A stretch of DNA of 64,000 nt from Candidatus Effluviviaceae Genus V sp. (GCA_014728125.1 WJMD01000097.1:2833-66832); one strand, 5' to 3'; shown: positions 3,764-60,466, counted from the first letter of the stretch. A program made the numbers and translations. The notes: generated by a model from the letters alone, not told the origin.

Positions 3764-3785
3764 GAGCGTGAGAACAGGGGGGCCC

Positions 3786-9316: not shown

Positions 9317-9339
9317 CGCCGCTTCGGAGCACACTGCAT

Positions 9340-9370
9340 CCCGGGCGCCCTGAAACGACGGGCGCCCGGG
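9340..9370 (+). terminator. GC-rich perfect hairpin (11-bp stem, 9-nt loop), likely intrinsic terminator
   Basis: CCCGGGCGCCC-tgaaacgac-GGGCGCCCGGG lies 24 nt after the stop of the T9SS cargo gene. There is no U-tract, as is common in high-GC genomes. Confidence 0.4.
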
Positions 9371-9409
9371 TGCCTTCCGGGGGGACGCACAGCTGAAAGG
9401 GCACGTTCG

Positions 9410-19330: not shown

Positions 19331-19340
19331 GGGGGACGAC

Positions 19341-19847: not shown

Positions 19848-19853
19848 GACCGG

Positions 19854-20813: not shown

Positions 20814-20942
20814 GCCGGACTCCTTCAGCCTTCAGTCAGGTGGCAATGGCGTCTTCATTCCGATAGAATCCACGGAGGCGCGGCCGCCGTGTCTCCGGCA
20901 TGATACACGACGACAGCCGCCTTCCCAAGCGGAGGAGAGCGG

Positions 20943-23941: not shown

Positions 23942-23960
23942 CCGGTCGCCGGTCATCCCT

Positions 23961-25325: not shown

Positions 25326-25477
25326 CGCTTCACCCCCCGATGCTCCCTGCCCGCGTCCGGGCGACGCACGGCGGACCAGGTCATTGTAGCGGCTGGTCCG
25401 GCGATGACAACCCTCCAGTGGTGCTGCACTTGGGGCGTCCCTCGGCGCCGGAAAGCCTTTGACCGCGGCGGGTCACC

Positions 25478-28353: not shown

Positions 28354-28456
28354 TGTGTCCGGCGCCGCCGGTTCTTCCCTTATCCCAGACTGACGAAGCC
28401 GGCCACTTGTTGTCTCCGAGGACGGGGCCGCGACCGTATCGAGAGCGGGAGTCCCC

Positions 28457-29962: not shown

Positions 29963-31149
29963 GGGTCCTCTTTCTCACATCGCGACTCCCGTTCCCCCCG
30001 GACCGCGGCGACAAGGTCAGAACGCACAATCTGCTGAGGGCGTTCGCCGCGCGCCACGACGTGAAGCTCATCTCCTTCGTCGACGGCGGCGAACCCGGGG
30101 AAGGGGAGGAGATACTCCGGCAGTGGTGCGACGTCGAGACGGTTCATCTCCCGTCGTTCCGCTCGGTGCTCAACGCGGGCGCGGGCCTTCTGCGTAGACT
30201 GCCGCTTCAGGCTTGCTACTACTCGTCAGGAGAGATGTCGGAGCTCGTGCGAAGCGCACTTCGGGACGGTTGCGACGCGCTCTACGTGCACCTCTTCCGG
30301 ATGGCGCCGTTCGCGCTCGGTGCCCTCGGCGACGTTCATGCGCGGGCCGGACGCCCGGCCACCATCCTCGACCTGACCGACGCTATCTCGCGCGAGATCG
30401 AGCTGTCCCTTCCGAGGAGACGACCGCTCTCGCGGGCGGTCTACACGATCGAGCATCGCAGGGTGCGAAGCTACGAGGCGGCCATCTCGCCGCGCTTCGA
30501 CGACGTGTGGACGATCTCGGGAGCGGACGCCGACATCATCCGAAGCGCGGCGCCGACGTCGAACGTCACCGTCGTTCCCAACGGCGTCGACGACTCGCTC
30601 TTCGCGCTCGGGATTCCCGCCGAGCGACCGGTCTCCGTCCTGTTCGTCGGGAACTTCCGTGTGCCCCACAACGTGGACGCCGCGGCCTGGCTGGCCGGAG
30701 AGATCGCGCCGGCGGTGGCCGCCGAGGTCCCCGGCGTCGAGTTCGTGCTGGCCGGCGCGGCCTCCGACGAGGTCGTTCTGCCCGAACGGGGTGTCGTCTG
30801 GCGCCGCAGGGGCTTTGTGCCGGCGCTGAAGGACGTCTACGGTGGGGCCGGTGTTTTCGCCGCCCCGATGCGGTTCGCGGCGGGCGTTCAGAACAAGATC
30901 CTCGAGGCGATGGCTGCGGGCCTCCCCGTTGTCACAACATCGATCGCGAACGCCGGTCTCGGCGCCCGGCCCGATTCCGAACTTCTTGTCCGGGACGGGG
31001 CGCGGGCCTTCGCCGACGGCATCGTGGACCTGCTGTCGAAGAGGGAACTCGCGGGAGGGATCGCGGAGCGGGGACGCGCGTTCGTCAGGGAACGCTTCAC
31101 CTGGGACAGGGCTCTGGAACGACTCGAGGAGGTCTCGGCCGGCCTATGA
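29959..31149 (+). CDS. glycosyltransferase family 4 (resembles PEP-CTERM/EpsH1-associated sugar transferase subfamily)
   Basis: The N-terminus MRVLFLTSRLPFPPDRGDKVRTHNLLRAFA and the C-terminal GT-B EX7E region (KILEAMAAGLPVVTT) are present. Confidence 0.8.
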   Translation: MRVLFLTSRLPFPPDRGDKVRTHNLLRAFAARHDVKLISFVDGGEPGEGEEILRQWCDVETVHLPSFRSVLNAGAGLLRRLPLQACYYSSGEMSELVRSALRDGCDALYVHLFRMAPFALGALGDVHARAGRPATILDLTDAISREIELSLPRRRPLSRAVYTIEHRRVRSYEAAISPRFDDVWTISGADADIIRSAAPTSNVTVVPNGVDDSLFALGIPAERPVSVLFVGNFRVPHNVDAAAWLAGEIAPAVAAEVPGVEFVLAGAASDEVVLPERGVVWRRRGFVPALKDVYGGAGVFAAPMRFAAGVQNKILEAMAAGLPVVTTSIANAGLGARPDSELLVRDGARAFADGIVDLLSKRELAGGIAERGRAFVRERFTWDRALERLEEVSAGL

Positions 31150-32457
31150 GGAGCGGCCGCGCCCTCGAGCAAGACGCTCGCAGGCCTTCACGAGCGGGGA
31201 GTCGTCCGACGTCGCATCGTGCTCGGCGAACGCGAGTTTCCTCGCCGCCGCTCCGAGCCGCTCTCTCAGGCCGTCGTCATCGAGGACGGAGGTCACCTCC
31301 CTCGCGAACGACCTCGGATCGTCGGCCATCCTCACCTCTCTGTCGTGCTCGACGTGCAGTCCCTCGCAGCCCTTCGTCGTCGTGACGACCGCCTTGCCCA
31401 TCGCCATCGCCTGGATGATCTTGACCCTCACGCCGCTTCCGATGCGCAGCGGAACGACCAGGACGCGCGACCGGGCGAAGTGTTCGAACACGTCATCGAC
31501 GTCGCCGACGAACGATACCCTTCCGTCGCCGCCGGCCAGAAGCGACGCCCACTGGGGCACGGGGGAACCGACGACGGTCACCGTCGTACCGGGTCGTGTC
31601 GCCCGAATGGCCGGGAGGATCTCTTCGAGGAACCAACGCAGGCTGTCCTGGTTTGGGCGCCAGCCGAACGAGCCGACGAAGAGAACGTCGTTCTCCTCGG
31701 CGTGTGGCGGCTCCGGCAGGGCTCCGACGTCGATCGCGAGCGGTACGGCCTCGACCCGGGCTTCCTCGGACATCTCCTCCAACGCTCGCCGGTCGACGTC
31801 ACTGAAGGTGAGCGTCAGGTCGAAGAGCGGCAGGACGGAGGCCTCGTATCGCTCCATGCGCCGCCACTGCAGCGTCGCGTAGAGGCGGGCGGCGGACGAC
31901 GCCTGGAAGTCCGCGAAGAGCCTCATCACGGTCGACTGGACGTTGTGTTCGAAGAGCACGGCTGGCGCATCCGAGGCAGCGCCCGCGGCGGGGAGCGCCG
32001 GAGCGCTGTGAAGGCTGTTGAAGAAGATGAGGTCGTAGCGCTCCGCGGCCGCCTCCGCGACCCTCGCGAGGAAGCGCCGCGATGTGTAGCGTCGAATGGG
32101 GACGGGGAGCGGGTCGGTGAGCCCCCTCAGATAGCCGGCGGTCGAGACCTTCGGCAGCTCGGGCACGGCGATGACGTCGGCGAGTCCGCCGAGCTCCGCG
32201 TCCTGCGACACCGTACCGTCCGGGACGATCGTCAGGAATGTGACGCCGTGCCCCGCCCGGGCAAGCTGCGAGATCTGGTAGAACGTGGCGATCTGACCAC
32301 CTGTTCTGCGCCTGCCGGGCAGATCCTGTCCGATGAAGAGGACACGCAACGCTATAGTCTCCCGGTTGAGCGTGACGGCGTCGGCGGAGGCTCCGCCGGA
32401 CGACCGCCCGAAGCTAGCGCAGGACGGCGGCGCGGTCAAGAGCCTCGAGCCGGGCAT
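31144..32457 (-). CDS. glycosyltransferase family 4
   Basis: The GT-B pattern LRVLFIGQDLPGRRRTGGQ...VLFVGSFGWRPNQDSLRWF...RVKIIQAMAMGKAVVTT is present. The true start is probably an internal TTG near 32349; the ORF is open to 32457. Confidence 0.75.
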   Translation of the reverse strand: MPGSRLLTAPPSCASFGRSSGGASADAVTLNRETIALRVLFIGQDLPGRRRTGGQIATFYQISQLARAGHGVTFLTIVPDGTVSQDAELGGLADVIAVPELPKVSTAGYLRGLTDPLPVPIRRYTSRRFLARVAEAAAERYDLIFFNSLHSAPALPAAGAASDAPAVLFEHNVQSTVMRLFADFQASSAARLYATLQWRRMERYEASVLPLFDLTLTFSDVDRRALEEMSEEARVEAVPLAIDVGALPEPPHAEENDVLFVGSFGWRPNQDSLRWFLEEILPAIRATRPGTTVTVVGSPVPQWASLLAGGDGRVSFVGDVDDVFEHFARSRVLVVPLRIGSGVRVKIIQAMAMGKAVVTTTKGCEGLHVEHDREVRMADDPRSFAREVTSVLDDDGLRERLGAAARKLAFAEHDATSDDSPLVKACERLARGRGRSS

Positions 32458-32607
32458 GACGATTGCACGTGGAGGGGACCGGGAGAAAGGTGCTTGCTCG
32501 ACGGTGCGGCGGGCTGTATACTCCGTCTTCTAACTGAGGGGTGAAGAATATCTGTCGCAGCCCGTCGTACGAGCGTGCTGACGACGCGACTTCATGGGAA
32601 GACACGG

Positions 32608-33567
32608 ATGAAAGCACTCGTCACCGGCGGCGCTGGGTTCATCGGTTCGCATCTGGTCGAGGCGCTCCTCGACCGGGGCGACCGCGTGTGGGTCATCGAC
32701 GACCTCTCGACCGGCCGCTTTGAGAACATCGCCCACCTCGAGGGAAACCCGGACTTCAGCTACGTCATCGACACGATCCTCGACGAGGAGATCGTCGCCG
32801 AGCTGACGTCCAAGGTCGACGTGGTCTTCCATCTCGCGGCGGCCGTCGGCGTCGCCTACATCATCGAGAACCCGTTGAAGTCGCTCGAGACGAACATACA
32901 GGGCACCGAGATCGTCCTTCAGAAGGCGAACGAGGGGAAGAAGAAGGTCGTTCTCTTCTCGACCTCGGAGATCTACGGCAAGGCCGACTCCCAGCCGTGC
33001 AGCGAGACCGACGATCGGATCCTGGGCTCGACGATGATCGCCCGCTGGGGCTACTCCTCCTCGAAGGCGATCGACGAGTTCCTGGCGCTGGCATACCATC
33101 GCGAGAAGCAGCTCCCGGTGGTCATCGTGCGATGCTTCAACACCTGCGGACCGCGCCAGACCGGTCAGTACGGCATGGTCATCCCGCGTTTCGTCAAGCA
33201 GGCGCTGCTCGACCATCCGATCACGGTCTACGGGGACGGACAGCAGACCCGCTGCTTCTGCGACGTGTCCGATGTGATTCGCGGCGTCCTGGCCCTGGTC
33301 GACGAGCCCTCGGCGAACGGCGAGGTCTTCAACATCGGGAGCGACGAGGAGACGACGATCGAGGCGCTCGCCGAGAGGATCAAGGAGCTCACGGGAAGCC
33401 AGTCGGTCGTGGAGCACATTCCCTACGAGAAGGCGTACGAGGAGGGATTCGAGGACATGCGGCGCCGCATTCCCGATCTCGCGAAGATCCGCGAGACCGT
33501 GGGATACGAGCCGCAGATCGGGCTCTCGGAGCTCCTGGAACGCATCGTAGCGCACTTTAAGAAGTAA
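32608..33567 (+). CDS. NAD-dependent epimerase/dehydratase (UDP-sugar 4-epimerase / UDP-glucuronate decarboxylase family)
   Basis: MKALVTGGAGFIGSHL is present, with the SDR catalytic motifs STSEIYG and YSSSK. Confidence 0.85.
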   Translation: MKALVTGGAGFIGSHLVEALLDRGDRVWVIDDLSTGRFENIAHLEGNPDFSYVIDTILDEEIVAELTSKVDVVFHLAAAVGVAYIIENPLKSLETNIQGTEIVLQKANEGKKKVVLFSTSEIYGKADSQPCSETDDRILGSTMIARWGYSSSKAIDEFLALAYHREKQLPVVIVRCFNTCGPRQTGQYGMVIPRFVKQALLDHPITVYGDGQQTRCFCDVSDVIRGVLALVDEPSANGEVFNIGSDEETTIEALAERIKELTGSQSVVEHIPYEKAYEEGFEDMRRRIPDLAKIRETVGYEPQIGLSELLERIVAHFKK

Positions 33568-33676
33568 ACTGAGGCCGCCGTACACGGGAGGGCGTACAGA
33601 ACGAGCTTGACAGCTACGAATGAGTCCTGAATAATCCCGATTCCGACGTTTGGCAGGGATCTGTCAGGAAACTGTC

Positions 33677-34840
33677 ATGATCTTCATCTGTGCGTTCGGC
33701 CTGTCGCTTCTGGCGGTCTTGGCGCTCACCCCGGCGGTGCGCACCCTCGCCACCAGGCTCAGGTTTCTGGACTACCCCAATCGGGCGAAGGCCCATCGGC
33801 GGCCCACGCCGCTGATGGGCGGTCTCGCCGTCGCCATCGCGAGCCTCGCCGCCGCGGCGAGCGCGCTGGCGCTGATTCGTTCTCCCTACAGCGCACGGAT
33901 CGTCGGCTTCATGTCCGGCGGACTGATCGTCGTGGTGCTCGGTCTGGCCGACGACGCCAACGGCATGAGGCCCCGCGTCAAATTGGCCGGCCAGGCCGCG
34001 GCCGCCACCGTCATGCTGCTCTCGGGCGGCATCGACGGCATCCCGCTGCCGCTTCCGCTCGCCTTCGGGCTCGCCCTCCTCTGGATGGTCGGGCTCATGA
34101 ACGCGTTCAACTTCCTGGACAACATGGACGGTATCACGTCCGGTCTGGCGTCGATCGCCTCGTTCGGCATCTTCTCGCTGGCGCTCGGCCACGGCCACAT
34201 CCATACCGCGATCGCGGCCATCTCCGTGGCCGGCGGGGCGCTCGGGTTCCTCAGGTACAACTTCTCCCCGGCCTCGATCTTCCTCGGGGACGCCGGCAGT
34301 CTCTTCCTCGGATATGTCGTTGGTGGACTGTCCCTCAGGGCTGTATCGTATGCGGGGGCCGACCCGACCGCGCTCCTGATACCCGTCCTGATGCTCGGCT
34401 ACCCCATTTTCGATGCGACGCTCGTCACGGTCGCGCGGCTGACCGACGGCCGGGACGTCGCGCAGGGCGGCACCGACCACAGCTCGCATCGGCTGGCGCG
34501 GCTCGGACTGAGCGCCAGGCAGACGGCTCGAACGATCTACACCATATCCGCCCTCCTTACGGGAACGGCGGTCTATCTCTCGCTCGCCCACAGCGGTCGC
34601 ACCGGTCTCCTCGGCCTGGCGGCTCTGGCGGCCGGGGGCGGCATGCTGCTGCTCGGCATGCGTCTCGTCCGCGTTCCCATCGCAGCGCGGTCGGACAAGG
34701 TGGCCCGCAGCGTTCGGATCCTGCGGGAGCTGTCGGACGAGGAGATGGTGCTCCTCTCGGGACACCGGCAGGAACCCGCCGACGCCGAGACGAGAGAGCC
34801 CTCAGAGACGAAGACCCGCGAAAAAGTCGCGTCGAGGTAA
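33677..34840 (+). CDS. undecaprenyl-phosphate N-acetylhexosamine-1-phosphate transferase (WecA/MraY family)
   Basis: The MraY/WecA motifs NAFNFLDNMDGI and FLGDAGSLFLGY are present in a polytopic membrane protein. Confidence 0.8.
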   Translation: MIFICAFGLSLLAVLALTPAVRTLATRLRFLDYPNRAKAHRRPTPLMGGLAVAIASLAAAASALALIRSPYSARIVGFMSGGLIVVVLGLADDANGMRPRVKLAGQAAAATVMLLSGGIDGIPLPLPLAFGLALLWMVGLMNAFNFLDNMDGITSGLASIASFGIFSLALGHGHIHTAIAAISVAGGALGFLRYNFSPASIFLGDAGSLFLGYVVGGLSLRAVSYAGADPTALLIPVLMLGYPIFDATLVTVARLTDGRDVAQGGTDHSSHRLARLGLSARQTARTIYTISALLTGTAVYLSLAHSGRTGLLGLAALAAGGGMLLLGMRLVRVPIAARSDKVARSVRILRELSDEEMVLLSGHRQEPADAETREPSETKTREKVASR

Positions 34841-37337: not shown

Positions 37338-37478
37338 CGCGTGGCGGGTTTCTTGACTGCCGTCGCGGCCGTGCTAGACTGACGTCGTAGGGAGTTTCAG
37401 GGTCGCCTGAATGGGGGCAAGGTGGCAAACCGTACGCGAGGAAGCTGGCGGGATCCCGACGCGATCGGCGCGCCGAGA

Positions 37479-38705
37479 ATGCGCGCCTACGTCTTCGTCG
37501 CCGTCTCCGTGCTCGCGATCGCCATCTTCCTCTATACGAACAGCCTCATCAGGCGGCTCGAGGTTCAGGCGGCCACCCTCTCCCGGTCGATCGCCGGGCT
37601 CTGCGCCACGGCGACCTATGCTGCGAGGGAGAACGAGGAACTCCGTGTGATCTTCACGGAGCTCATCGAGACGATCAACTTCCCGATCGTCATCACCGAC
37701 GTCAGAGGAGTCCCGATCACGTGGAAGGGGCTCCCGATGGAGATCGACCCGTACGACGTCACGCACGAGGACTACCTCAACGCCGATCCCCAGGCCGGTG
37801 ACGAGACACCGCTGGGCGAGATCATGGCGTTCACGAGAGAGCTCGACCGCAAGCAGTCCCCGATTCCGATGACGCATCTCGGCGACGACACGGTGCTCGG
37901 CTACATTCACTACGGCGAGTCGAGCATGATCCGCGAGATGCGGTACGTCCCGCTCCTGGAGCTTCTGGCCTTCGGGATCCTCGTTGCGCTGGGTTTCCTG
38001 GGGTTCCGGAACGCGAAGCTCGCGGAGCTCAGGTCGATCTGGGTCGGCATGGCCAAGGAGACCGCACACCAGCTGGGCACGCCGATCTCCTCTCTGATGG
38101 GGTGGGTCGAGCTTCTCAGAAGCAGCGCTGACGAGGACTGCGTGGCCTGCAGCCGGATGAGCGGCATGGCCGACGAGATGCAGCGCGACCTGGAGCGGCT
38201 CGAAAAGATATCGCTCAGGTTCAACCAGATCGGCTCGATCCCGAAGACGAAACGTCAGGACGTCGTCATCGTCCTCAGAGAGGCGGTCGACTATCTCAGG
38301 CGGCGGCTCCGGGCGCTCGGCAAGGACGTCGCTCTCGAGGAGCTCTATCACGAGGTTCCGCCGGTCGACGTCAACCGCGAACTGATGGAATGGGTCGTCG
38401 AGAACCTGGTCAAGAACTCGACCGAGGCCCTGCCGCCCGAGGGAGGCAGGATCGTCATCTCGACGGAGTACGATCCGAAGCAGGGCTGCGTCCGCCTGCT
38501 CTTCACCGACAACGGCAAGGGACTCTCGCAGTCTGAGCGCCGCCGGATCTTCCTGCCCGGCTACTCCACCAAACGGCGGGGATGGGGCCTCGGACTGGCC
38601 CTCGCGCGGCGCATCATCGAGGAGTATCACAAGGGTCGGCTCTACGTCGGGTGGTCCGAGCCCGGCAAGGGGACGACCTTCGTCATATCGCTTCCGGCGA
38701 CGTAG
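37479..38705 (+). CDS. sensor histidine kinase (PorY-like)
   Basis: Two TM helices are present (MRAYVFVAVSVLAIAIFLY; LLAFGILVALGFLGF). The HisKA motif is ETAHQLGTPISSLMGW, and the HATPase_c motifs are ENLVKNSTEA...TDNGKGL...GWGLGLALARRI. Confidence 0.8.
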   Translation: MRAYVFVAVSVLAIAIFLYTNSLIRRLEVQAATLSRSIAGLCATATYAARENEELRVIFTELIETINFPIVITDVRGVPITWKGLPMEIDPYDVTHEDYLNADPQAGDETPLGEIMAFTRELDRKQSPIPMTHLGDDTVLGYIHYGESSMIREMRYVPLLELLAFGILVALGFLGFRNAKLAELRSIWVGMAKETAHQLGTPISSLMGWVELLRSSADEDCVACSRMSGMADEMQRDLERLEKISLRFNQIGSIPKTKRQDVVIVLREAVDYLRRRLRALGKDVALEELYHEVPPVDVNRELMEWVVENLVKNSTEALPPEGGRIVISTEYDPKQGCVRLLFTDNGKGLSQSERRRIFLPGYSTKRRGWGLGLALARRIIEEYHKGRLYVGWSEPGKGTTFVISLPAT

Positions 38706-38759
38706 CGTGGCCGCTTCGGCGCGCACGCCGCAGAGGGGTGTGATGGGAGGGGAGGACAC

Positions 38760-40325
38760 ATGAACGGTCCCGTGAGGCGCATCCTCTGGGTCGACGACGA
38801 GATCGACCTCCTGAAGCCCCACATCATCTTCCTTGAGGGAAAGGGATACGAGGTCGGCACGGCGACGGGCGGCGAGGAAGCTGTCGAGATGATCCGTGAG
38901 AAGCCGTACGACATCGTGTTGCTGGACGAGATGATGGTCGGCATGGACGGACTGGAGACGCTCGGGCTCATCAAGGAGATCGACCCGGCACTCCACGTCG
39001 TCATGGTGACCAAGAGTGAGGAAGAGGAACTGATGAACGATGCGCTCGGGCGGCGCATCGACGACTTCCTGATCAAGCCGGTCAAGCCGACGCAGGTGCT
39101 TCTGGCGATCAAGCGCATCCTGGACGGGCGAAAGATGCGGCGCGACCAGACCGCCCAGAGCTACGCATCCGAGTTCAACGAGCTCCAGCGCCGACTGATG
39201 GAGCCGATGAACTGGGAGGAGTGGATCCAGCTCTACGTGCGTCTGGTGCACTGGGATCTCGAGCTCGACAAGAACCGCGATCCCGGACTTCAGCAGACGC
39301 ACGGAGACCTCAGACAGACCGCCAACGCGGAGTTCGGGCGCTTCGTCTCCGGGGAGTACGGGGCCTGGGTCAACGACGAGATCGACCGTCCCACGCTGTC
39401 GGTCGACATCTTCGAACGCTTCGTGGCGCCGCTTCTCAAGGCGCGAAAGAAGGTCTACTTCGTCGTTCTGGACTGCATGCGGCTCGATCACTGGCTGAGC
39501 ATCCAGAGCGACCTCGAAGGACTTTTCTCGATCACGAACAGCTACTACTACTCGATCCTGCCGACGGCCACGCCGTTCTCGAGGAACTCGCTCTTCGCGG
39601 GCCTGTGGCCGGTCGAGATCACGCAGTACGTGCCGGATCTCTGGGCGACCCCGGCGCGCGACGAGTTCAGCAAGAACCGGCATGAGCGGAGGCTCATGGA
39701 CCTGCAGATCGACCGCCACGGACTCCGCTTCTCGCCGGAGCACAAGTACGTGAAGATCTACGAGAAGGACGAGGCCGAGAACGTCAAACGGCAGATGGCC
39801 TCGTTCGTCGACCGGCGGTTCGTCTCGCTGGTCTATAACTTCGTCGACATCCTCTCGCACTCGCGTTCCGAGTCGGAGATCCTCCAGGAGATCGCGCCGG
39901 ACGAGGCGGCGTTCCGCTCCCTCGTGCGGTCATGGTTCAACCACTCGGCGCTCTACGACATCATCGCGGAGATGGCCAGGCAGGGCGCGACGGTCGTCCT
40001 GACCACCGACCACGGCGCGGTGCTCGGCAGGAGGGCAGCGCTGATCCGCGGCAACCGCGACACCTCGACCAACCTGCGCTACAAGTTCGGCAGCAACCTC
40101 GGATGCGACGAGAAGGAGACGTTCCTCATCAAGGAGCCGGCGAGGTTCAAACTCCCGGCCGACGGCGCCAGCAAGCAGTACGCGATCGCCAAGGAGGACT
40201 ACTACTTCGTCTACCCGACGGAGTTCCACCGTTACGAGCGGCAGTACAAGGGCAGCTTCCAGCACGGCGGCATCTCGCTCGAGGAGATGATCCTGCCGTG
40301 CGCCGTCATGGAGCCGAGATCGTGA
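38760..40325 (+). CDS. response regulator with receiver domain and C-terminal PglZ (alkaline-phosphatase-like) domain (PorX-like)
   Basis: The receiver domain is RILWVDDEIDLLKPHIIFLEGKGYEVGTATGGEEAVEMIREKPYDIVLLDEMMVGMDG...DFLIKP (the phospho-acceptor is likely the Asp in LLDEMM). The C-terminal 330 aa have PglZ-like metal-site residues (VVLDCMRLDHW; TTDHGAV). The total length is 521 aa. Confidence 0.8.
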   Translation: MNGPVRRILWVDDEIDLLKPHIIFLEGKGYEVGTATGGEEAVEMIREKPYDIVLLDEMMVGMDGLETLGLIKEIDPALHVVMVTKSEEEELMNDALGRRIDDFLIKPVKPTQVLLAIKRILDGRKMRRDQTAQSYASEFNELQRRLMEPMNWEEWIQLYVRLVHWDLELDKNRDPGLQQTHGDLRQTANAEFGRFVSGEYGAWVNDEIDRPTLSVDIFERFVAPLLKARKKVYFVVLDCMRLDHWLSIQSDLEGLFSITNSYYYSILPTATPFSRNSLFAGLWPVEITQYVPDLWATPARDEFSKNRHERRLMDLQIDRHGLRFSPEHKYVKIYEKDEAENVKRQMASFVDRRFVSLVYNFVDILSHSRSESEILQEIAPDEAAFRSLVRSWFNHSALYDIIAEMARQGATVVLTTDHGAVLGRRAALIRGNRDTSTNLRYKFGSNLGCDEKETFLIKEPARFKLPADGASKQYAIAKEDYYFVYPTEFHRYERQYKGSFQHGGISLEEMILPCAVMEPRS

Positions 40326-50887: not shown

Positions 50888-51172
50888 ATGAACAAGGCGG
50901 AACTCATCGAGAAGGTCGCGCAGCGTTCAGGGCTTTCGAACCGTGCAGCGAAGGACGTCGTCGACTCGATCTTCGCGGTCGACAACGGGATCATCGCCGA
51001 GGAGCTCAAGAGCCGCGGCAAGGTCCAGATCACGGGCTTCGGCACCTTCCAGGCCGACAAGCGCAACGCCCGCGACTGGCGGATCCCCGGCACCGACAGG
51101 ACGAAGCACGTGCCGGAGCACTTCGCGCCGAAGTTCAAGGCCGGTAAGTCGCTGAAGGACACGGTCAAGTAG
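50888..51172 (+). CDS. hup: HU-family nucleoid DNA-binding protein
   Basis: MNKAELIEKVAQRSGLSNRAAKDVVDSIFAV...GFGTF......R.P.T is the HU/IHF fold signature. The protein is 94 aa. Confidence 0.9.
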   Translation: MNKAELIEKVAQRSGLSNRAAKDVVDSIFAVDNGIIAEELKSRGKVQITGFGTFQADKRNARDWRIPGTDRTKHVPEHFAPKFKAGKSLKDTVK

Positions 51173-51281
51173 AACGACCCGAGCAGGGTACACGACTCAA
51201 CGGGGAGCGGAGAGTCCTGGACTCTTCTCTCCCCGTTTCTCTTTGCTCGCCGGATGACGCACGTCCGGCGGGAGGACGAGT

Positions 51282-52649
51282 ATGCAGCAGCTGGTCGCTA
51301 CCGTCATCAGGCGGACCGAGACCGGGCGCCGGACGACGTCCACGGGGCTGTCGGCGAGACGGCTGTCGCTCCGCGTCAGGGTCGAGGGGCCCGTCGAGAA
51401 GGCCCTCGCCGTTCCTGACCGGGTGAAGGGCAGGGAGATGACCATCGTGCGCGAGGTGCCGGGTCGATGGGGCATCCGCCGGGGCGACACGATCGTGCTC
51501 AGCCGGAAGGAGAGCGCGAGGGCGCTGTGTCCAAGGAGGGCATCGCTTCCCGAGCTCCCGTCGGGCGCCGACGCGGTGAGGCTCGACACCGGCGACATCG
51601 ACAGAGACGGCTTCGAGGAGGACCGTCTCTCGAACGCCTTCGTGGAGGCGGTGCTCAAGCCCCACCGCGGCGCGCGCCTCGCATCGCTCAGGGACTGCGG
51701 CGGCGTCGACCGCTTCGCGCAGCCCTTCGAGCACATCATGGCGGGGAAGTACGTGCTCCTCGGGGGCGCCGAGGACCTCATCTTCGAATCGGGTTCGCCC
51801 GGGAAGCTCTGGAACGCCGCCCTCGAACGCGAGCAGGGCGGGGCCGGCGAGGCCGTGTACGGAACGAAGCTCAAGAGCCCCGCCCACGTTCGCCTCCGGA
51901 AGCGCGCGTGGACGGAGCCGGGTCTCCCCGGTGTCATCACCGAGGTCCGCATCCGGTATGACGGTACGTCGAACGACGAGGCCGGACGGGAGAGCGCGGA
52001 CGAGGACAGGACGGCGATCTCGTACGGCATCAGGCTCTCGACGGCGGTCACCGGAACCGCGTCGAGGAACGTCTTCGACGTCCCCGGCCCCGGCGGCGTC
52101 AAGGTCGTCCGGTACGTCAGGCCGCCTCACGGCAGGCGCTGGCGATGGCGCGACTGGAGGGACGAGAGCTTCGGGCTGAGGGGAGGCTTCCTGATCAGCC
52201 GTCACGAGGTGCTCGGGCGCCCTCTCATGGTGCTTTTCAGCGCCCGCCGGGCGCTCTGCGTGGGCATCCGGAACGACCTTCCGGGGCCGGAGGTCGTGCT
52301 GCGGCACAGGACGGTCCGCCTCAGAGCGGATGCTGAGCGGCCGTGGGGCGCGGCCTTTCTGTCGGGCGATGCCTCGTGCGCGTCCGGTAAGAGCGCGCTG
52401 CTTCTTTCCCGCGACAGAACGGGCACAAGACTTGCGGTCAGCGTCCGGACGGCGCGACGTGTCGAGCGGATCCGGGCCTCGCTTCTGACGGCGGGCGGAC
52501 GGCGGCGGCTGACGCTCCGCCCCGTCGAGGTCCCGTACGCCGGACATCTGCATACGGGCGTGCTCGAGGACCTGGACGCCATGAGGCGGCTGGCATGCCG
52601 CGTGCGCGTCGCCGACGACGTGCTCCGCGCGGCGCTGGAGGACGCATGA
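51282..52649 (+). CDS. hypothetical protein (translationally coupled to the downstream GCS2 ligase)
   Basis: This 455-aa ORF has coding-like GC3. The opposite-strand ORF is antisense-like. The stop TGA overlaps the ATG of the next gene (ATGA). No family was recognised. Confidence 0.5.
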   Translation: MQQLVATVIRRTETGRRTTSTGLSARRLSLRVRVEGPVEKALAVPDRVKGREMTIVREVPGRWGIRRGDTIVLSRKESARALCPRRASLPELPSGADAVRLDTGDIDRDGFEEDRLSNAFVEAVLKPHRGARLASLRDCGGVDRFAQPFEHIMAGKYVLLGGAEDLIFESGSPGKLWNAALEREQGGAGEAVYGTKLKSPAHVRLRKRAWTEPGLPGVITEVRIRYDGTSNDEAGRESADEDRTAISYGIRLSTAVTGTASRNVFDVPGPGGVKVVRYVRPPHGRRWRWRDWRDESFGLRGGFLISRHEVLGRPLMVLFSARRALCVGIRNDLPGPEVVLRHRTVRLRADAERPWGAAFLSGDASCASGKSALLLSRDRTGTRLAVSVRTARRVERIRASLLTAGGRRRLTLRPVEVPYAGHLHTGVLEDLDAMRRLACRVRVADDVLRAALEDA

Positions 52650-53884
52650 TAAGGGCGCTCGAACCCCTGACGCTCGGATACGACTGGGAGATGGCCGTTC
52701 TCAGGCCGTCGGGTGAGAACGTGTCCGAGAAGGACGTCACCGAGCTGGGCGACGACCTGCGCTCGAAGCTGTCCTGGGCGGAGACCGGCACCGATTTGGA
52801 GCTTCTGGAGAGCCGGATCGGCGCGGTCCGGAGCTTCGGTGAACTCCTGAAGAAGAGCGAGCGCTTCGACGAGGTGCTCACGGAGGAACTCGAGCGCCGA
52901 GGGTGGGGGCTGCTCCGGCTCGGAGCGAGGCCGTTCCAGATGGAGCCCGTCGGGGCGCACGTCCACGTGGGGACCGTGTCGAGCACGCGGGCGGCGATCG
53001 GTATCCAGAACGGGATGATCCCGTACACTGCGCCTCTCGCCGCGCTCTGCGTCAACAGCGCCGTCTACCGGTCGCGCTGGGGCGACTACAAGAGCTACCG
53101 CGTCGCGTCGTTCGCGGAGGGCTGCTCGACCCCACAGGGCGTCTACCGACCCGAGACGTCGCAGTGGATCTGGGGTACGGACGTCAACGCGAAGCATGCC
53201 TGGGGCTCGACCGTCGAGCTCCGGGTCGCAGACTGTACAGGGTCGGTCCGCCTGATGTGCGAGGTCACCGCGTTCGTCGCGGGCATGATGTTCCACGTCG
53301 CGGAGCACGGGCTCGACCGCGAGGTCGGCACGGACGAGTATCGCGAGTTCCTCGTGAACCGCTGGCGGGCCGCTCGGCACGGTCTTCAGGCCGTGTTCGA
53401 GCGGAACGGACGAGGGATCGAGGTCGTCTCACTGTTGACAGAGATGCTGGAGATGGCGCAGGATGGCCTTGAACTCCTCGGGACGTCCGTCGGAGATCTG
53501 AAGGTCGTCCGGGCCATGCTCAGGAAGCGCCAGACGCAGGCCGACTTCCAGAGGGCGCTTTTCGAGATGGACGGGTGCGATCCCTATCGCCACACGCGGA
53601 CCATGATGAACGTTCAGAGGGATCCCAGGGCCTTCGAGCGCTACCTGCGGACGGCGCCGATGCTCGAAGCACTCGAGCCCGAGGACCACGACGCGTTCCT
53701 CCTCGGCCTGGTCGAGGTCGAGACGCCCTACCATATGCTGCTCCGTGCGACTCCGCTCGGACCGGACGCTCTCGACCGTCTGCTCGAGCGTCTCGTGCGC
53801 GAGGGCCTCGTCGTCGAGGGGCGGGACCCCATGGGGGTCAGAACGTATACGCGGGCCGGCGCCCTGCCCGAGCAGCCGAACTGA
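52646..53884 (+). CDS. glutamate-cysteine ligase family 2 (GCS2/YbdK-type carboxylate-amine ligase)
   Basis: LTLGYDWEMAVLRPSG and the GCS2 hallmark GAHVHVGTVSS are present, with the later ELRVAD pattern. The start was set at ATG 52646; the ORF is open from 52595. Confidence 0.7.
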   Translation: MIRALEPLTLGYDWEMAVLRPSGENVSEKDVTELGDDLRSKLSWAETGTDLELLESRIGAVRSFGELLKKSERFDEVLTEELERRGWGLLRLGARPFQMEPVGAHVHVGTVSSTRAAIGIQNGMIPYTAPLAALCVNSAVYRSRWGDYKSYRVASFAEGCSTPQGVYRPETSQWIWGTDVNAKHAWGSTVELRVADCTGSVRLMCEVTAFVAGMMFHVAEHGLDREVGTDEYREFLVNRWRAARHGLQAVFERNGRGIEVVSLLTEMLEMAQDGLELLGTSVGDLKVVRAMLRKRQTQADFQRALFEMDGCDPYRHTRTMMNVQRDPRAFERYLRTAPMLEALEPEDHDAFLLGLVEVETPYHMLLRATPLGPDALDRLLERLVREGLVVEGRDPMGVRTYTRAGALPEQPN

Positions 53885-53913
53885 CGGCCGGGGCGTCCGC
53901 CGGGAGGTGACGC

Positions 53914-54261
53914 ATGGGAGAGGTGTCCAGCATGGTCGAGCTTCTGGGAGTGCTCCTGAGGCTTCTGGGACTCGATCGGAACGCCCTGCTGCCGGCCGTC
54001 GCGCTGCTCATACTCTTCTTCCTTCTGGCGGTCCCCGCGGGTCTCCTCGCGCAGTCCCGCAGGATCGCCACGGGGCGACAGGGGATCGTCGGCGAGCGGG
54101 GAAGGACGGTCGGCGCACTGGACCCGGAGGGCAAGGTCTTCGTCCACAGCGAGTACTGGAACGCCGTCGCCGACGAGCCGATCGGTGAAGGAGAACGGAT
54201 CGTCGTGACCGGCGTCGACGGCATGAGGCTCAGGGTCGAGCGGGATCCTCAAGGGAGGTAG
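53914..54261 (+). CDS. NfeD-family membrane protein (stomatin partner, OB-fold C-terminus)
   Basis: The N-terminus has TM helices. The C-terminus is GIVGERGRTVGALDPEGKVFVHSEYWNAVADEPIGEGERIVVTGVDGMRLRVE, the NfeD OB-fold pattern. The gene lies directly upstream of the SPFH gene. Confidence 0.7.
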   Translation: MGEVSSMVELLGVLLRLLGLDRNALLPAVALLILFFLLAVPAGLLAQSRRIATGRQGIVGERGRTVGALDPEGKVFVHSEYWNAVADEPIGEGERIVVTGVDGMRLRVERDPQGR

Positions 54262-54264
54262 CGC

Positions 54265-55020
54265 ATGGTTGGAACCGTCATACTCATACTGGTCGTGCTC
54301 GTCCTGCTCGCGAAGTCGGTCTACGTGCTTCGCGAGTACGAGCGCGGCGTCGTCTTCCGGCTCGGCCGGTTCACCGGCGTCAGGGGCCCGGGCTTCATCC
54401 TCATTATCCCGTTCATCGACCGACTCGTCCGCGTGGGGCTTCGGATCATCGCCATGGACGTCCCGCCGCAGGATGTGGTGACGAGGGACAACGTCTCCGT
54501 CAAGGTGAATGCGGTCGTCTACTACCGGGTGTTCGAGCCGAATCTCGCCATCATCGAGGTCGAGGATTTCGACTACGCGACCTCCCAGCTCTCGCAGACG
54601 ACGCTTCGAAGCGTGATCGGTTCTGTAGAGCTCGACGAGCTATTGTCCGAGCGGGACAAGATCAACCAGGAGCTGCAGTCGATCCTCGACAAGCAGACCG
54701 ACAGCTGGGGCATCAAGGTCTCGGCGGTCGAGGTCAAGCACGTCGACCTGCCCGAGGGCATGCAGCGCGCCATCGCCCGCCAGGCCGAGGCCGAGCGCGA
54801 GCGCCGCGCAAAGATCATCCACGCCGAGGGCGAGCTCCAGGCTTCAGAGAAGCTCTCTCAGGCCGCGACGGTCCTCGCCAAGGAGCCGTCCTCGATGCAG
54901 CTCCGTTTCCTGTCGACATTGACCGAGATCTCGGCCGAGAAGAATTCGACGATCATCTTCCCCGTGCCGATCGATCTGGTCGAGGCGTTCATGAAGAGAT
55001 TCAGACCGAACGAGTCCTGA
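54265..55020 (+). CDS. SPFH/band-7 stomatin-like protein
   Basis: [12 protein letters not shown]...[13 protein letters not shown]...[31 protein letters not shown] is present. Confidence 0.9.
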
Positions 55021-56773: not shown

Positions 56774-57463
56774 ATGGCGGATCGGCCTGGAACGGGCACG
56801 CTCTATCTGGTGGCGACTCCGATAGGCAACCTCGGGGACGTGACCCGGAGAGCGCTCGACATCCTGGGCACGGTCGACTCGATCGCCTGCGAGGACACGA
56901 GGCGCACCCGGAAGCTCCTGTCACACTACGACATCGATACGAAGCTCACGGCCTACCACGACCACAACGAAGAGAGGGCCTCGCGCGGGATCGTCGAGCG
57001 TCTGCGCGAAGGGAAGGACGTCGCCCTCGTCACCGACTCGGGGACACCCCTCATTTCCGACCCGGGTTACCGCCTGGTCTCGATGGCCGTCGAGGAGGGC
57101 CTCGACGTGGTTCCCGTTCCGGGCCCGTCGGCCGTCGTCGCGGCGCTCTCCGCGGCGGGGCTTCCGCCGCATCCGTTCCTGTTCGCGGGCTTTCTCCCCA
57201 GGAAATCGGGGGCACGGAGACGCCGCATCGAAGAGCTGGGCGCCGTGCACGCCACCCTCGTTCTCTATGAGTCTCCGCACAGGATCGCCGCGGCGCTCGC
57301 CGACCTCGCCGACGTTCTGGGCGATCGGCGCGGGGCCGTCCTGAGGGAGCTCACGAAGGTCCACGAGGAGATCCTGCGCGGTACGCTCCCGGAACTGGCG
57401 GATGAGGTTTCCCGGCGTCGGCTCAAGGGAGAGATCGTCATCGTCATCGGCCCCGGCGCCTGA
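56774..57463 (+). CDS. rsmI: 16S rRNA (cytidine1402-2'-O)-methyltransferase
   Basis: GTLYLVATPIGNLGDVTRRALDIL...ACEDTR...VALVTDSGTPLISDPG is the tetrapyrrole-methylase-fold RsmI signature. Confidence 0.85.
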   Translation: MADRPGTGTLYLVATPIGNLGDVTRRALDILGTVDSIACEDTRRTRKLLSHYDIDTKLTAYHDHNEERASRGIVERLREGKDVALVTDSGTPLISDPGYRLVSMAVEEGLDVVPVPGPSAVVAALSAAGLPPHPFLFAGFLPRKSGARRRRIEELGAVHATLVLYESPHRIAAALADLADVLGDRRGAVLRELTKVHEEILRGTLPELADEVSRRRLKGEIVIVIGPGA

Positions 57464-57482
57464 GCGTCCGGAGGGGGGCGGA

Positions 57483-58559
57483 GTGAGCGTCCTGAGCGTG
57501 GTTGTGGCCCTGGTGCTGGCCGTAACGCCGGCTGAGGAGCGGGAACTCGATCGGATCGCCACGCTGGGCTACGTGGCGGGCTCGGTTCCCGCCGTCGATA
57601 CGACCGGCGTGCTGGTGCGCGAGCCGGACCGAATGGCTTCAGGCCTGACGCTCTACACGCCCTCGGCGGGTCCGGAGGCGCTCCTCATCGACTCGGAGGG
57701 CAGGACCGTTCACCGCTGGAGCCTGCGCGGCTCGTCGTACTGGGCCAGGGTCAGGATGATGGACGACGGTTCGCTCCTCGTCATCACGTGTGACCCGGCG
57801 CGGCTCATGAAGATCGACCACACCTCGGAGAGGCTCTGGCGCGCCTCGGGGACCGCCCACCACGATCTCGACGTCGACTCGGAAGGCAGGATCTACGTCC
57901 TCATGCGGGAGGCCGTGACGCGGGACGGCATCCACGACGGCGGTAACATCCTCGACGACGAGATCGCGATCCTCGACCAGTATGGCAAGGGTCTGGGGAC
58001 GGTGTCGATACTTGACGCGTTCCGTGCGTCCGACAGGTACGCCTCGTGGGTCTCCGACGACGCCCTGCCCGAGGGACCGGACATCCTCCACACGAACTCG
58101 ATCGAGGTCTACGAACGGGACGGTCGGAGAGAGGCTCTGGTGTCGATCAGGAGCATCGGAACGATAGCCCTCATCGACCTCGACGGGGGCGGTCTCGTCT
58201 GGGCCCTGCGTGGAGCGTGGCGGATGCAGCACGAAGCGCACTTCGTCTCGGACCGCATCCTGCTCTTCGACAACCTCGGACTCGGTGACGACCGGTCGCG
58301 GGTCATCGAGGTCGACCCCGCGAGCGGGGAGATCCTCTGGGAGTGGACCGAGCCGGGCTTCTTCTCACGGGGAGCGGGAGCGGTCCAGAGGCTCTCGAAC
58401 GGCAACACGCTCATCACGGAGTCGGAGAACGGCCGGATCATCGAGATCGACCCATCCGGCTCGGTCGTCTGGGAGTATCTCAATCCGGTGACGATCGACC
58501 GGGGCCGGACGCTCACTCTGGGGATCATGCGCGCCGAGCGCATCGAGCAGAGTCCCTAG
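57483..58559 (+). CDS. arylsulfotransferase (ASST)-like beta-propeller protein
   Basis: GTG 57483 follows GGAGGGGGG, and the signal/anchor is VSVLSVVVALVLAV. Repeated propeller blades are present, with HHDLDVDSEGRIYVL, ILHTNSIEVYERDG and NGNTLITESENGRIIEID. Confidence 0.55.
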   Translation: MSVLSVVVALVLAVTPAEERELDRIATLGYVAGSVPAVDTTGVLVREPDRMASGLTLYTPSAGPEALLIDSEGRTVHRWSLRGSSYWARVRMMDDGSLLVITCDPARLMKIDHTSERLWRASGTAHHDLDVDSEGRIYVLMREAVTRDGIHDGGNILDDEIAILDQYGKGLGTVSILDAFRASDRYASWVSDDALPEGPDILHTNSIEVYERDGRREALVSIRSIGTIALIDLDGGGLVWALRGAWRMQHEAHFVSDRILLFDNLGLGDDRSRVIEVDPASGEILWEWTEPGFFSRGAGAVQRLSNGNTLITESENGRIIEIDPSGSVVWEYLNPVTIDRGRTLTLGIMRAERIEQSP

Positions 58560-58654
58560 GCCGCGGCCGCCTGCTTGACACCTCTTTCGCGGCGGTGCTA
58601 GACTGCGCCGTTCGGCAGACACCTCGTCGGAAGGAACCCGGGGCTTCAGTTCCC

Positions 58655-59263
58655 ATGGCTGTGAAGGGCATCAAGGCACGGGCCCGTTCCGTGCTCGATC
58701 CGGTGGCTCGATTCGCGGCCGACGTCGGGGTGACGCCCGCGGGGCTGACGCTGGCCGGACTGGCGTTGTCCGGTCTGGCGGGGTTCAGCATCGCCCACGG
58801 CAGGTTCCCTGTCGCGGGCGTGCTGCTCGTGCTGGCCGGTGTCTGCGACATGCTCGACGGTGCGGTAGCGCGCCTGTCGAACCGGACGAGCGACGAAGGT
58901 GCCTTCCTCGACTCGACGGTCGACAGGTATGCCGAGGCCGTGGTGCTCCTCGGGGCGCTTCACTACTACCTCTTCCGGTCCGCGACCGCCCCTGAGACCG
59001 CGACGGCGATCGCGATCTTCCTGGCGTTCTGGGGCTCTTTGCTCGTGAGCTACACGCGGGCGCGGGCCGAGGGGCTCGGGAGGAGCTGCACCGTCGGAAT
59101 AGCCGAGAGACCCGAGCGTGTCGTGCTGCTGATCGTCGGGGCGCTCCTGGGTTCCGGCGTCATGCGGATCGTGTTGTGGGTCCTGGTCGTTCTCACCCAC
59201 CTCACGGCGCTCCAGCGTATCCTCCATGTTCTCTATGCGGGCGGAGGGCGGCCGCGCTCCTAG
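58655..59263 (+). CDS. CDP-alcohol phosphatidyltransferase (probable phosphatidylinositol-phosphate synthase-type)
   Basis: The D-G-x2-A-R...G...D-x3-D motif appears as CDMLDGAVARLSN...GAFLDSTVDRYAE. The protein is 202 aa with several TM helices. Confidence 0.75.
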   Translation: MAVKGIKARARSVLDPVARFAADVGVTPAGLTLAGLALSGLAGFSIAHGRFPVAGVLLVLAGVCDMLDGAVARLSNRTSDEGAFLDSTVDRYAEAVVLLGALHYYLFRSATAPETATAIAIFLAFWGSLLVSYTRARAEGLGRSCTVGIAERPERVVLLIVGALLGSGVMRIVLWVLVVLTHLTALQRILHVLYAGGGRPRS

Positions 59264-59296
59264 CGTAGCCCCCGTGCCCGGGGAGACGGACAACTT

Positions 59297-60466
59297 ATGT
59301 CGAAGAACAAGGTACGTGTCGCGATCATAGGCATCGGCAACTGCGCATCGTCGCTGGTCCAGGGCGTCCAGTACTACAAGGACGCTCCCGAGGACGCCTT
59401 CGTGCCCGGTCTCATGCATGTCAACCTGGGCGGCTATCACGTGGGCGACGTCGAGTTCTCGGCGGCGATCGACATCGACAGGAACAAGGTCGGTAAGGAC
59501 CTCTCCGAGGCCATCTTCATCGAGCCCAACAACACCTACAGGTTCTCCGACGTTCCGAAGCTCGATGTTCCGGTCGTACGCGGCATGACCCACGACGGTC
59601 TCGGCAAGTACCTCTCCGAGATCATCGAGAAGGCGCCCGGGCCGACGGACGACATCACGGGCATTCTGAAGGAAACGAAGACGGACGTCGTCGTCAACTT
59701 CCTGCCGGTCGGCAGCGAGGAGGCGACGAAGTGGTACGTGGAGCAGATCCTCGATGCCGGATGCGGCTTCGTGAACGGCATCCCCGTCTTCATCGCGCGG
59801 GAGCGGTACTGGCAGCAGCGCTTCGAAAAGAAGGGCCTGCCCGTCATGGGAGACGACATCAAGTCTCAGGTCGGCGCGACGATCGTCCACCGGGTCCTGA
59901 CGCGGCTCTTCCGCGACCGCGGCGTCAGGCTCGAGAGAACGAGCCAGCTCAACGTGGGCGGCAACACGGACTTTCTGAACATGCTCGAGCGGTCCCGGCT
60001 CGAGTCGAAGAAGATCTCGAAGACCGGCGCCGTCACCTCGCAGCTCGACTACGACATCGGCAAGGGCAACGTCCACATCGGTCCCTCGGACTACGTCGAG
60101 TGGCTCTCCGACCGGAAGTGGGCCTATGTGCGGATGGAGGGACGGACGTTCGGCGACGTGCCGCTCAACGCCGAACTCAAGCTCGAGGTCTGGGATTCGC
60201 CGAACTCGGCCGGCGTCATGATCGACGCCGTCAGGTGCATGAAGCTTGCGATGAACCACGGGCTCTCGGGCGCAATAGCGGCGCCGTCCTCGTACTTCTT
60301 CAAATCTCCTCCAGTGCAGTACACGGACGACGAAGCCCGGCACCTGACCGAGCGCTTCATCGAGGAGCACGCTCTCGACGCCGGCAGGGAGACCGACGCC
60401 GGGATCGGGTCCGACGGGGAATCCGGACCGCAGGAGGAGCTGATCAAGGAGCCGTCCGGTTCCTGA
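59297..60466 (+). CDS. ino1: myo-inositol-1-phosphate synthase (bacterial/archaeal type)
   Basis: A Rossmann motif [18 protein letters not shown] is present. The MIPS core motifs are [19 protein letters not shown] and SYFFKSPP. The protein is 389 aa. Confidence 0.8.

Follow-up and report, generated by a model that had tools for sequence, protein, structure and literature searches.

Carboxylate-amine ligases of the YbdK type are widespread, and their physiological substrates are mostly unknown. The superfamily in which they are placed is defined by a GhExE signature together with a conserved Glu, a conserved His and two conserved Arg residues, and YbdK and other members of it are dimeric (Iyer et al., PMC2588565). 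Here we describe a locus in a stretch of 64,000 nucleotides (nt) from Candidatus Effluviviaceae Genus V sp. (GCA_014728125.1 WJMD01000097.1:2833-66832, hereafter the window; GC ~67%), where a divergent YbdK/GCS2-type carboxylate-amine ligase of 412 amino acids (aa; 52646-53884, + strand) is encoded directly downstream of a 455-aa protein, hereafter the partner (51282-52649, +). The two genes share an ATGA in which the ligase start overlaps the partner stop (52646-52649, +). The proteins at the locus are 100% identical to those of a Candidatus Eisenbacteria metagenome-assembled genome (locus tags GF405_05790 and GF405_05795), the partner being the "hypothetical protein" GF405_05790 at NCBI. An earlier note on this DNA, made by a model from the sequence alone, had listed four + strand open reading frames (ORFs) at 51282-55020 with this overlap, at the very positions found here, and had proposed that the first two form a functional unit of two proteins. 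We found that the partner and ligase genes are co-inherited in several uncultured bacterial groups, across deep divergence and changed gene order, and the two proteins almost certainly work together.

Conservation of the gene pair

Besides the window, 53 loci (L001 and following) were collected from look-ups of identical proteins, a genome scan and a metagenome scan, the latter with the ligase motif KRQTQADFQ as scan pattern, and their ORFs were scored with hidden Markov models (HMMs) of both families. One locus, L053, carries a generic YbdK-like gene without a partner and was set apart as a twelfth group. In six of the remaining 53 loci (window included) the contig breaks off within the ligase, with no upstream DNA, which leaves 47 informative loci. 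The earlier note had called for a co-occurrence analysis of the pair. A partner homolog directly adjoins the ligase in 46 of these 47 loci, the exception being L017, a contig of only 1.6 kb. Grouping of the ligases at 50% identity gave 11 subfamily clades. The partner is present in ten of them, at ligase identities down to ~31%, and the eleventh is that of L017.

The genes overlap by 4 nt in the window, L002, L008, L012 and L020, by 8 nt in L001 and L010 and by 11 nt in L014, they abut in L015, and a 3-nt gap parts them in L018. The order is reversed in L018 and L020, where the ligase comes first and the downstream genes are partner homologs by HMM (E 2e-61 and 5e-23). The window partner is 23% identical to that of L001 over 385 aa (BLASTP, E 2e-33), and its match to the L014 partner reaches an hhalign probability of 100% (E 7e-45); the N-terminal domain described below can be recognised in all partners. 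The surrounding genes differ from clade to clade, exemplified by folate, pantoate and dNK genes in L001 and L010, an EPSP-synthase-like gene and two NamZ genes in L008, a PIN/MazE pair in L012, a sigma-70-like gene in L014 and pyruvate:ferredoxin oxidoreductase genes in L015. When the neighbours at the 53 loci were clustered, no third family proved common to the clades, generic ABC ATPases aside. That the two genes stand side by side in 10 of 11 clades with overlapping or abutting junctions, in both gene orders and among otherwise unrelated neighbours, supports the proposed two-protein unit. A literature search found no publication describing the pair.

The ligase subfamily is sharply bounded and rare. 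An exhaustive search of 1.84 billion representatives, clustered at 50% identity, with the ligase profile returned 1786 relatives at E <= 1e-3 and 52 at E <= 1e-30. These 52 strong matches are full length; below them the scores drop to ~1e-20 and the matches are partial and belong to generic YbdK-like proteins.

Several loci carry variants of the pair. Three proteins of ~800 aa (P0091-P0093), at first candidates for partner fusions, were rejected as such and are tandem ligases, made up of a ligase and a degenerate second copy that lacks GhDWE (the form that the signature takes in this subfamily) and HxHxG and retains KRQ(T/S)(Q/C)AD and the winged helix described below. One of them belongs to L014:4079-8424 (JGI Ga0315282_10008915); there the start of the tandem ligase lies within the end of an upstream partner gene, which is itself preceded, at a distance of 1 nt, by a small sigma-70 region-2-like gene. 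Because the tandem variants carry a degenerate second copy, they suggest that the ligase works as a dimer; they also suggest a structural role for its C-terminal part. A 770-aa protein (P0134) that might have served as a partner-ligase fusion, and so as Rosetta-stone evidence, was not counted; its DWE and HxHxG motifs are scrambled in a frameshift-like manner, and the overlap of the two genes has probably given rise to an artefact of assembly or gene calling. In L048-L052 (e.g. L049:5024-6007), whose ligase is ~31% identical to that of the window, the partner is only 320-327 aa long, with the N-terminal domain kept and little sequence that can be recognised as supersandwich. The partner-like ORF of L050 is found 3' of the ligase and is encoded on the other strand.

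In the window, an HU gene (50888-51172; Pfam 4e-23) lies upstream of the partner. A hairpin with a U-rich tail, a likely intrinsic terminator (51199-51246, +), is found 3' of the HU gene and parts it from the pair. RNA folding gave this hairpin a dG of -28.6 kcal/mol and a z of -4.5, with 0 of 200 shuffles equally good, and UUUCUCUUU comes next. It went undetected by a simple terminator scan, probably on account of a mismatch in the stem. A GGAGG Shine-Dalgarno-like motif can be read 6 nt 5' of the partner ATG (51271-51275, +), and since this motif and the hairpin with its U-run precede it, the partner ORF is taken to open the transcription unit. Although the longest ORF of the ligase begins at 52595, the overlapping ATG at 52646 is the start in every homolog and in the NCBI model P0028.

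Two neighbours outside the module follow: a short NfeD of 115 aa (53914-54261, +; PF01957, 1e-15, 58.1 bits, cut-off 29.1) and, after a 3-nt gap, a SPFH/stomatin-like (Band_7) protein of 251 aa (54265-55020, +; PF01145, 3.4e-42, 144.9 bits, cut-off 23.6). An NfeD-SPFH pair directly downstream had been noted before; NfeD does lie immediately 5' of SPFH, and both Pfam matches are above threshold. The terminator scan revealed no terminator-like site between the four genes, its sole match lying inside the partner gene at chance level, and none of the four proteins matched the PADLOC anti-phage defence profiles at E <= 0.01.

The ligase and partner proteins

The assignment of the ligase to the GCS2/YbdK family in the earlier note holds at the level of superfamily fold, profile and residues; as a Pfam call it does not, the window copy scoring 12.7 bits with GCS2 (PF04107), below the gathering threshold of 21 (E 0.081). 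It scores 31-65 bits with the NCBIfam YbdK and glutamate-cysteine ligase (GCL) models, whose cut-offs are 176-437, and the partial matches to YbdK-family models reach 6e-18. All 32 aligned family members match Pfam GCS2 at E <= 1 (best 9.6e-14), and the family profile finds the YbdK structures in the PDB at E 3.5e-22 across the whole core. The AlphaFold 2 (AF2) model (pLDDT 90.7, pTM 0.91) confirms a glutamine-synthetase-type fold of the core. Its top Foldseek matches are YbdK (1tt4/1r8g; E 1e-15, TM-score 0.65-0.77), followed by plant GCL, Dop/PafA and glutamine synthetases. As the window copy is below the Pfam threshold, the GCS2 assignment rests on the family-level matches, the NCBIfam partial matches, the YbdK profile match and the fold; and since the scores fall below the cut-offs while 32 of 32 members match GCS2, the ligase represents a divergent subfamily and is itself an atypical member. 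Its homologs are publicly annotated as "glutamate-cysteine ligase family protein" or "YbdK".

The family version of the GhExE Mg/ATP signature is G-Y-D-W-E (aa 11-15; 52676-52690, +), in which D13, W14 and E15 are invariant. The HVHVG hallmark had been noticed from the sequence and is located at aa 105-109 (52958-52972, +), where H105, H107 and G109 are invariant and align with GQHVHVG of YbdK. A strand with the metal-binding Glu and the active-site Arg, E191-x-R193-x-x-D196 (53216-53233, +), aligns with TVEVRVMD of YbdK, and E191, R193 and D196 are all invariant. The role of the conserved Arg residues has been described (PMC2588565). The remaining metal and phosphate ligands (E55, H105/H107, E191, R193 and R152) are likewise invariant and aligned with their YbdK equivalents, so the loss of catalytic residues, which the earlier note had named as a ground for abandoning its proposal, is not seen. 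Judged by its residues, the active site looks competent, with one family-wide change of Glu to Asp.

Two further features set the subfamily apart. The near-invariant K-R-Q-T-Q-A-D-F-Q (aa 294-302; 53525-53551, +) is a subfamily hallmark outside the canonical active site. A C-terminal winged-helix-like domain (~aa 345-405; 53678-53860, +), missing from YbdK, is modelled with helices at 348-355, 362-367 and 373-385 and strands at 389-393 and 399-403, at pLDDT >90. It has weak winged-helix-type Pfam matches and is covered only by the 52 matches at E <= 1e-30.

The partner ORF is a real gene, and its + strand frame is coding. This follows from the codon-position GC of 0.70/0.55/0.88 (GC3 0.88), the presence of homologs in 27 clusters at 38-59% identity, ~50 invariant columns in an alignment of 25 sequences and a confident AF2 model (pLDDT 84.6, pTM 0.85). 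The concern that the ORF might be non-coding and without conservation in relatives, raised with the original proposal, is thereby removed. An antisense ORF of 462 aa (51165-52553, -) spans nearly the whole partner gene; it failed the codon-composition screen and was rejected as a high-GC shadow ORF. Searches with the partner against Pfam and NCBIfam assigned no family, and when an alignment of partners from several clades was used in a further word-indexed search of proteins, one protein only was gained.

The AF2 model shows an all-beta protein in three parts, and the partner is a folded cytoplasmic beta protein. It has no signal peptide, since the N-terminus is conserved and a beta strand begins at residue 4. 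The N-terminal orphan domain (~aa 1-85; 51282-51536, +) is the part most widely conserved across clades; in the Armatimonadota partner and the short partners of clade 2, no other region matches strongly. In an alignment of this domain (17 sequences, >10 clades) only P45 and E77 are invariant, with R57 and G68 near-invariant, and its profile found no sequence relative in the PDB.

The partner had been called unclassifiable, which does not apply to its central domain, a beta-supersandwich of the galactose-mutarotase/GH57-domain-II fold (~aa 100-380, boundaries approximate; 51579-52421, +) that is opened by a DxDxDG-type loop (D105-E113; 51594-51620, +). The best Foldseek matches in the PDB are the galactose-mutarotase-like 3mwx (E 1e-9; TM-score 0.56 target-normalised, 0.41 query-normalised), 4bze and 3dcd. 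Further matches are the periplasmic P1 domain of YidC, GH38 mannosidases, polysaccharide lyases and cellobiose phosphorylase, and domain II of the GH57 4-alpha-glucanotransferase 1k1x is matched at E ~1e-5. The partner profile finds residues 388-428 of the T. litoralis 4-alpha-glucanotransferase (1k1w) at E 0.022, in a match that runs through the motif D-x-D-x-DG-x-x-E...N...P-H-x-G-[AG]-x-[LI]. The corresponding family, PF09095, is matched below threshold by 3 of 11 partners (best E 0.0065); the window partner itself has E 0.15 and 12.1 bits, against a threshold of 22. The domain probably stands outside this family, as a distant relative of GH57 domain II and of mutarotase-like sandwiches. 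An aldose 1-epimerase/mutarotase assignment found no Pfam match for the partner even at E <= 10, and H128 is unconserved outside Eisenbacteria.

A loop of low AF2 confidence, RRWRWRDWRDE (aa 285-295; 52134-52166, +), is invariant in 25 Eisenbacteria-type partners, and W287 alone is universal across clades. The partner ends in a C-terminal beta-sandwich (~aa 381-455, boundaries approximate; 52422-52646, +), defined by AF2 secondary structure at pLDDT ~90. A conserved C-terminal Glu was considered as an acceptor of the Pup or LysW kind and rejected, the "LE" ending being confined to Eisenbacteria-type partners.

Proposed function and its alternatives

The reading that we favour, at about an even chance, is that the pair is an obligate two-protein ATP-dependent carboxylate-amine ligase, with the partner as a specificity-setting, non-catalytic subunit. 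The 412-aa protein would be the catalytic subunit, with a YbdK-type glutamine-synthetase-fold core. By phosphorylation it would convert a carboxylate (most likely a gamma-carboxylate of the glutamate type) to an acyl-phosphate, and the acyl group would then be passed to an amine to give an amide. The KRQTQADFQ helix and the C-terminal winged-helix domain form a probable docking surface. Translational coupling would match the synthesis of the 455-aa partner to that of the ligase. The N-terminal domain of the partner may bind the ligase on that ligase-specific surface, and its mutarotase/GH57-type supersandwich may offer a cleft that determines which substrate is bound, possibly an acceptor that contains a sugar or is otherwise bulky. 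Complex formation, the roles of the partner domains, the direction of the reaction (ligase or hydrolase) and the nature of the substrate are points that we infer. The product could be an amide-linked metabolite not yet described, e.g. a gamma-glutamyl or aminoacyl sugar or amino-sugar conjugate such as a new low-molecular-weight thiol or solute, with the partner delivering the acceptor; this is a doubtful suggestion, and protein modification at Glu77 of the partner is less likely again.

The only hint at gamma-glutamyl chemistry comes from a Peptidase_C26/class-I glutamine amidotransferase (GATase) gene that lies within two genes of the pair in two clades only. In L002 and L003 (Armatimonadota) it lies two genes downstream of the pair on the same strand (L002:8157-8903, L003:4042-4788), and in L015 and L016 it is convergent and directly follows the ligase (L015:3378-4082 and L016:1899-2603, both -). 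Between these two clades the ligases are 32% and the C26 proteins 38% identical. By a rough estimate, such a coincidence would be unlikely to arise by chance, the order being 1e-3 to 1e-4 if a genome carries one to three such genes. The neighbour hints at turnover of a gamma-glutamyl amide, or at glutamine-derived ammonia for amidation.

A number of observations weigh against the two-subunit ligase. The Peptidase_C26 link is found in 2 of 11 clades only, and the window has no C26 gene. The first signature Glu is replaced by Asp in 32 of 32 aligned members, a conservative substitution, with the second Glu invariant, that may affect the chemistry. Neither a mutarotase model nor PF09095 reaches threshold for the partner, the mutarotase TM-scores are modest, and the supersandwich fold also occurs in proteins without a sugar role (YidC P1). 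The middle of the partner is poorly conserved in the short clade-2 and Armatimonadota partners, which weakens the idea that the partner serves as a binding cleft throughout. Dop, with the same fold, is a hydrolase, so the reaction might also run in that direction, and the pairing itself could reflect a common pathway instead of a physical complex.

The last of these points, taken further, is that each protein acts on its own, the two sharing a pathway or no more than their expression, and that their adjacency is operon inheritance without a complex. The partner does evolve much faster than the ligase, with 38-59% against 55-78% identity within Eisenbacteria, which speaks for this view. However, the adjacency has outlasted ligase divergence to ~31% identity, full turnover of neighbours and inversion of the order in two clades, and persistent overlapping or nearly abutting pairs are the pattern expected of subunits of one enzyme, through translational coupling, so that separate action seems rather unlikely. 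In another reading the partner is itself the substrate, the ligase activating a carboxylate of the partner, with Glu77 as the candidate site, and attaching an amine to it, or it is a carrier on which a product is built, as intermediates are carried by LysW. We regard this as unlikely. Coupled 1:1 synthesis would suit an enzyme and its stoichiometric substrate, E77 is one of only two invariant residues of the N-terminal domain (the other being P45), and the ligase has among its structural neighbours PafA and Dop, which act on protein glutamate and derive from a GCS2-like ancestor (PMC2588565). But E77 sits in a well-ordered helix (pLDDT ~85-89), unlike the flexible tail of Pup or LysW, the C-terminus of the partner is unconserved across clades, and a three-domain protein of 455 aa would be unusual as a tag or carrier. 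Furthermore, scans of nearby genes gave no Pup-like, proteasome or carrier-pathway genes, and no Pfam match to proteasome/Mpa families was found in the scanned window proteins or the 11 clade contexts, small Pup-like ORFs not having been specifically searched for.

The eukaryotic two-subunit GCL provides a precedent for a third arrangement, an ordinary GshA-like gamma-glutamylcysteine ligase that makes a glutathione-type thiol precursor, with the partner as a regulatory modifier like GCLM. This would agree with the annotation of homologs as "glutamate-cysteine ligase family" and with the weak gamma-Glu-Cys ligase activity ascribed to YbdK (Lehmann 2004, as cited in PMC2588565). We consider it improbable: equivalog models of GCS2-type glutamate-cysteine ligases give 31-65 bits against cut-offs of 371-437, the subfamily is set apart from the generic YbdK-like proteins by the fall from 1e-30 to 1e-20 with partial coverage only, no glutathione synthetase occurs among the nearby window proteins scanned, and partner and GCLM have nothing in common. 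That the "ligase" should instead act as a Dop-like amidase or deamidase on an amide bound by the partner is quite improbable. Dop shares fold and catalytic residues with ligases (cf. PMC7947786), and the family-wide change of GhExE to GhDWE could alter the chemistry; yet no positive evidence points to hydrolysis, all ATP/Mg-binding residues are retained, and where a hydrolase is nearby it is the separate Peptidase_C26 gene. Finally, the pair might work with the NfeD-SPFH membrane scaffold as a system of four genes, which appears highly improbable. The ligase-NfeD gap is 29 nt, with no terminator-like site in it, and the arrangement is kept in four other Eisenbacteria loci. In these loci, however, it is the entire block ROK kinase-LptD-HU-partner-ligase-NfeD-SPFH-RecJ-RsmI (~12 genes) that is syntenic, for which reason the adjacency carries no specific signal, and NfeD/SPFH was not found beside the pair in any clade outside Eisenbacteria. 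NfeD-SPFH is a self-contained and widespread pair, and here it is an independent membrane-scaffold pair and a bystander. Their adjacency to the ligase pair is confined to one phylum and does not support a link between the two pairs.

The partner defines an orphan protein family without a Pfam model, and its strict co-inheritance makes the pair easy to co-express and offers a structural handle on specificity. Should the partner indeed select the substrate, the pair would provide the first demonstration of a bacterial GCS2-type ligase that depends on a second subunit, and an amide-linked metabolite or modification not known before could come to light in little-studied phyla (Eisenbacteria, Armatimonadota and others). 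Since the family is rare and touches no long-standing question, we regard its importance as moderate. So far nothing contradicts ordinary small-molecule amide ligation.

Neighbouring genes and comparison with known systems

The absence of known thiol pathways from the neighbourhood, remarked on before, was confirmed for the ~48 window proteins scanned against Pfam, which include no glutathione, ergothioneine or mycothiol genes. Two other pathway links were tried and dropped. Folate genes (FolB/HPPK beside the pair in L001 and L010, FolC 6 kb upstream in the window) were judged a coincidence seen in one clade only. An inositol or mycothiol-like link, through INO1 and a CDP-alcohol transferase 4-6 kb downstream, falls within the syntenic block and is not found elsewhere. 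The genes concerned, a CDP-alcohol phosphatidyltransferase adjoining a myo-inositol-1-phosphate synthase (58343-60466), suggest synthesis of an inositol phospholipid or an inositol-phosphate solute in this Eisenbacteria genome. A downstream INO1 recurs in L004, L006 and L007, with a clear match to a CDP-alcohol transferase in L004 only.

Elsewhere, the window contains a large surface-polysaccharide cluster (18002-34840). It encodes a UDP-glucose dehydrogenase, a dTDP-sugar epimerase-like protein, GT2 and GT4 glycosyltransferases, an NAD-dependent epimerase/dehydratase and a WecA-like GT4 initiating transferase; for export and polymerisation a Wzx-like flippase, a Wza-like exporter (Poly_export/SLBB), a Wzz/GNVR chain-length protein and a Wzy_C polymerase; and also a phosphodiesterase and a sulfatase. 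A histidine-kinase-like protein and, after it, a response regulator with PglZ (alkaline-phosphatase-like) as a fused and uncommon output domain are encoded at 37422-40325. Two large secreted proteins (7271-11734) have C-terminal sorting domains of the FlgD_ig or Por_Secre_tail type, which points to a type IX-like secretion system; one of the two is an M14 zinc carboxypeptidase that also has CarboxypepD_reg and MAM-like domains. An arylsulfotransferase-like beta-propeller ORF (57402-58559; PF14269/PF05935) overlaps, at its longest start, the RsmI-like methylase by 62 nt, and a start codon further 3' is probably the one in use. At 1217-4352, a deoxynucleoside kinase extended by ~100 aa at its N-terminus has a thioredoxin and two AhpC/TSA-type peroxiredoxin-like proteins as its flanking neighbours.

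Among known systems, the NfeD-SPFH (stomatin-type) operon is matched by the window pair in textbook form, above threshold, with its 3-nt gap and with nothing unusual. The partner shares the supersandwich and its opening motif with GH57 domain II (1K1W/1K1X, PF09095) and with the mutarotase-like 3MWX and 4BZE; it differs in having no glycoside-hydrolase catalytic domain, in its unique flanking domains and in a similarity that stays sub-threshold (E 0.0065-0.15).

PuuA and PuuD form a known ligase-hydrolase gamma-glutamyl cycle. Another, uncharacterised carboxylate-amine ligase family has been linked to GATase-like thiol peptidases (PMC2588565), and both systems resemble L002/L003 and L015/L016 in placing a GS-fold (glutamine-synthetase-fold) ligase beside a Peptidase_C26/class-I GATase. 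They have no beta-sandwich partner, however, and the present ligase is of the GCS2 type and not of the GS/PuuA type. PafA and Dop belong to the same superfamily, are structural neighbours of the ligase and demonstrate that the fold can act on protein glutamates (PMC2588565), whereas their TM-scores are lower (0.47-0.54), their domain additions differ and proteasome/Mpa families are missing from the scanned neighbours of the pair.

The closest relative is YbdK of E. coli and Salmonella (PDB 1R8G, 1TT4; PF04107), with which the ligase shares the fold (TM-score 0.65-0.77), colinear homology (3.5e-22), HxHxG, the E-x-R strand and the upstream Glu and Arg residues. The identity is only ~19-20%, and the ligase has GhDWE instead of GhExE, an extra winged-helix domain and KRQTQADFQ. 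To our knowledge, YbdK has no obligate neighbouring partner gene, unlike the present ligase. The eukaryotic holoenzyme of GCLC and GCLM is a carboxylate-amine ligase dependent on a second subunit without catalytic function, as is proposed here for the ligase and its partner. It differs in that GCLC comes from another GCL group and GCLM adopts an aldo-keto-reductase-like fold that has no relation to the partner.

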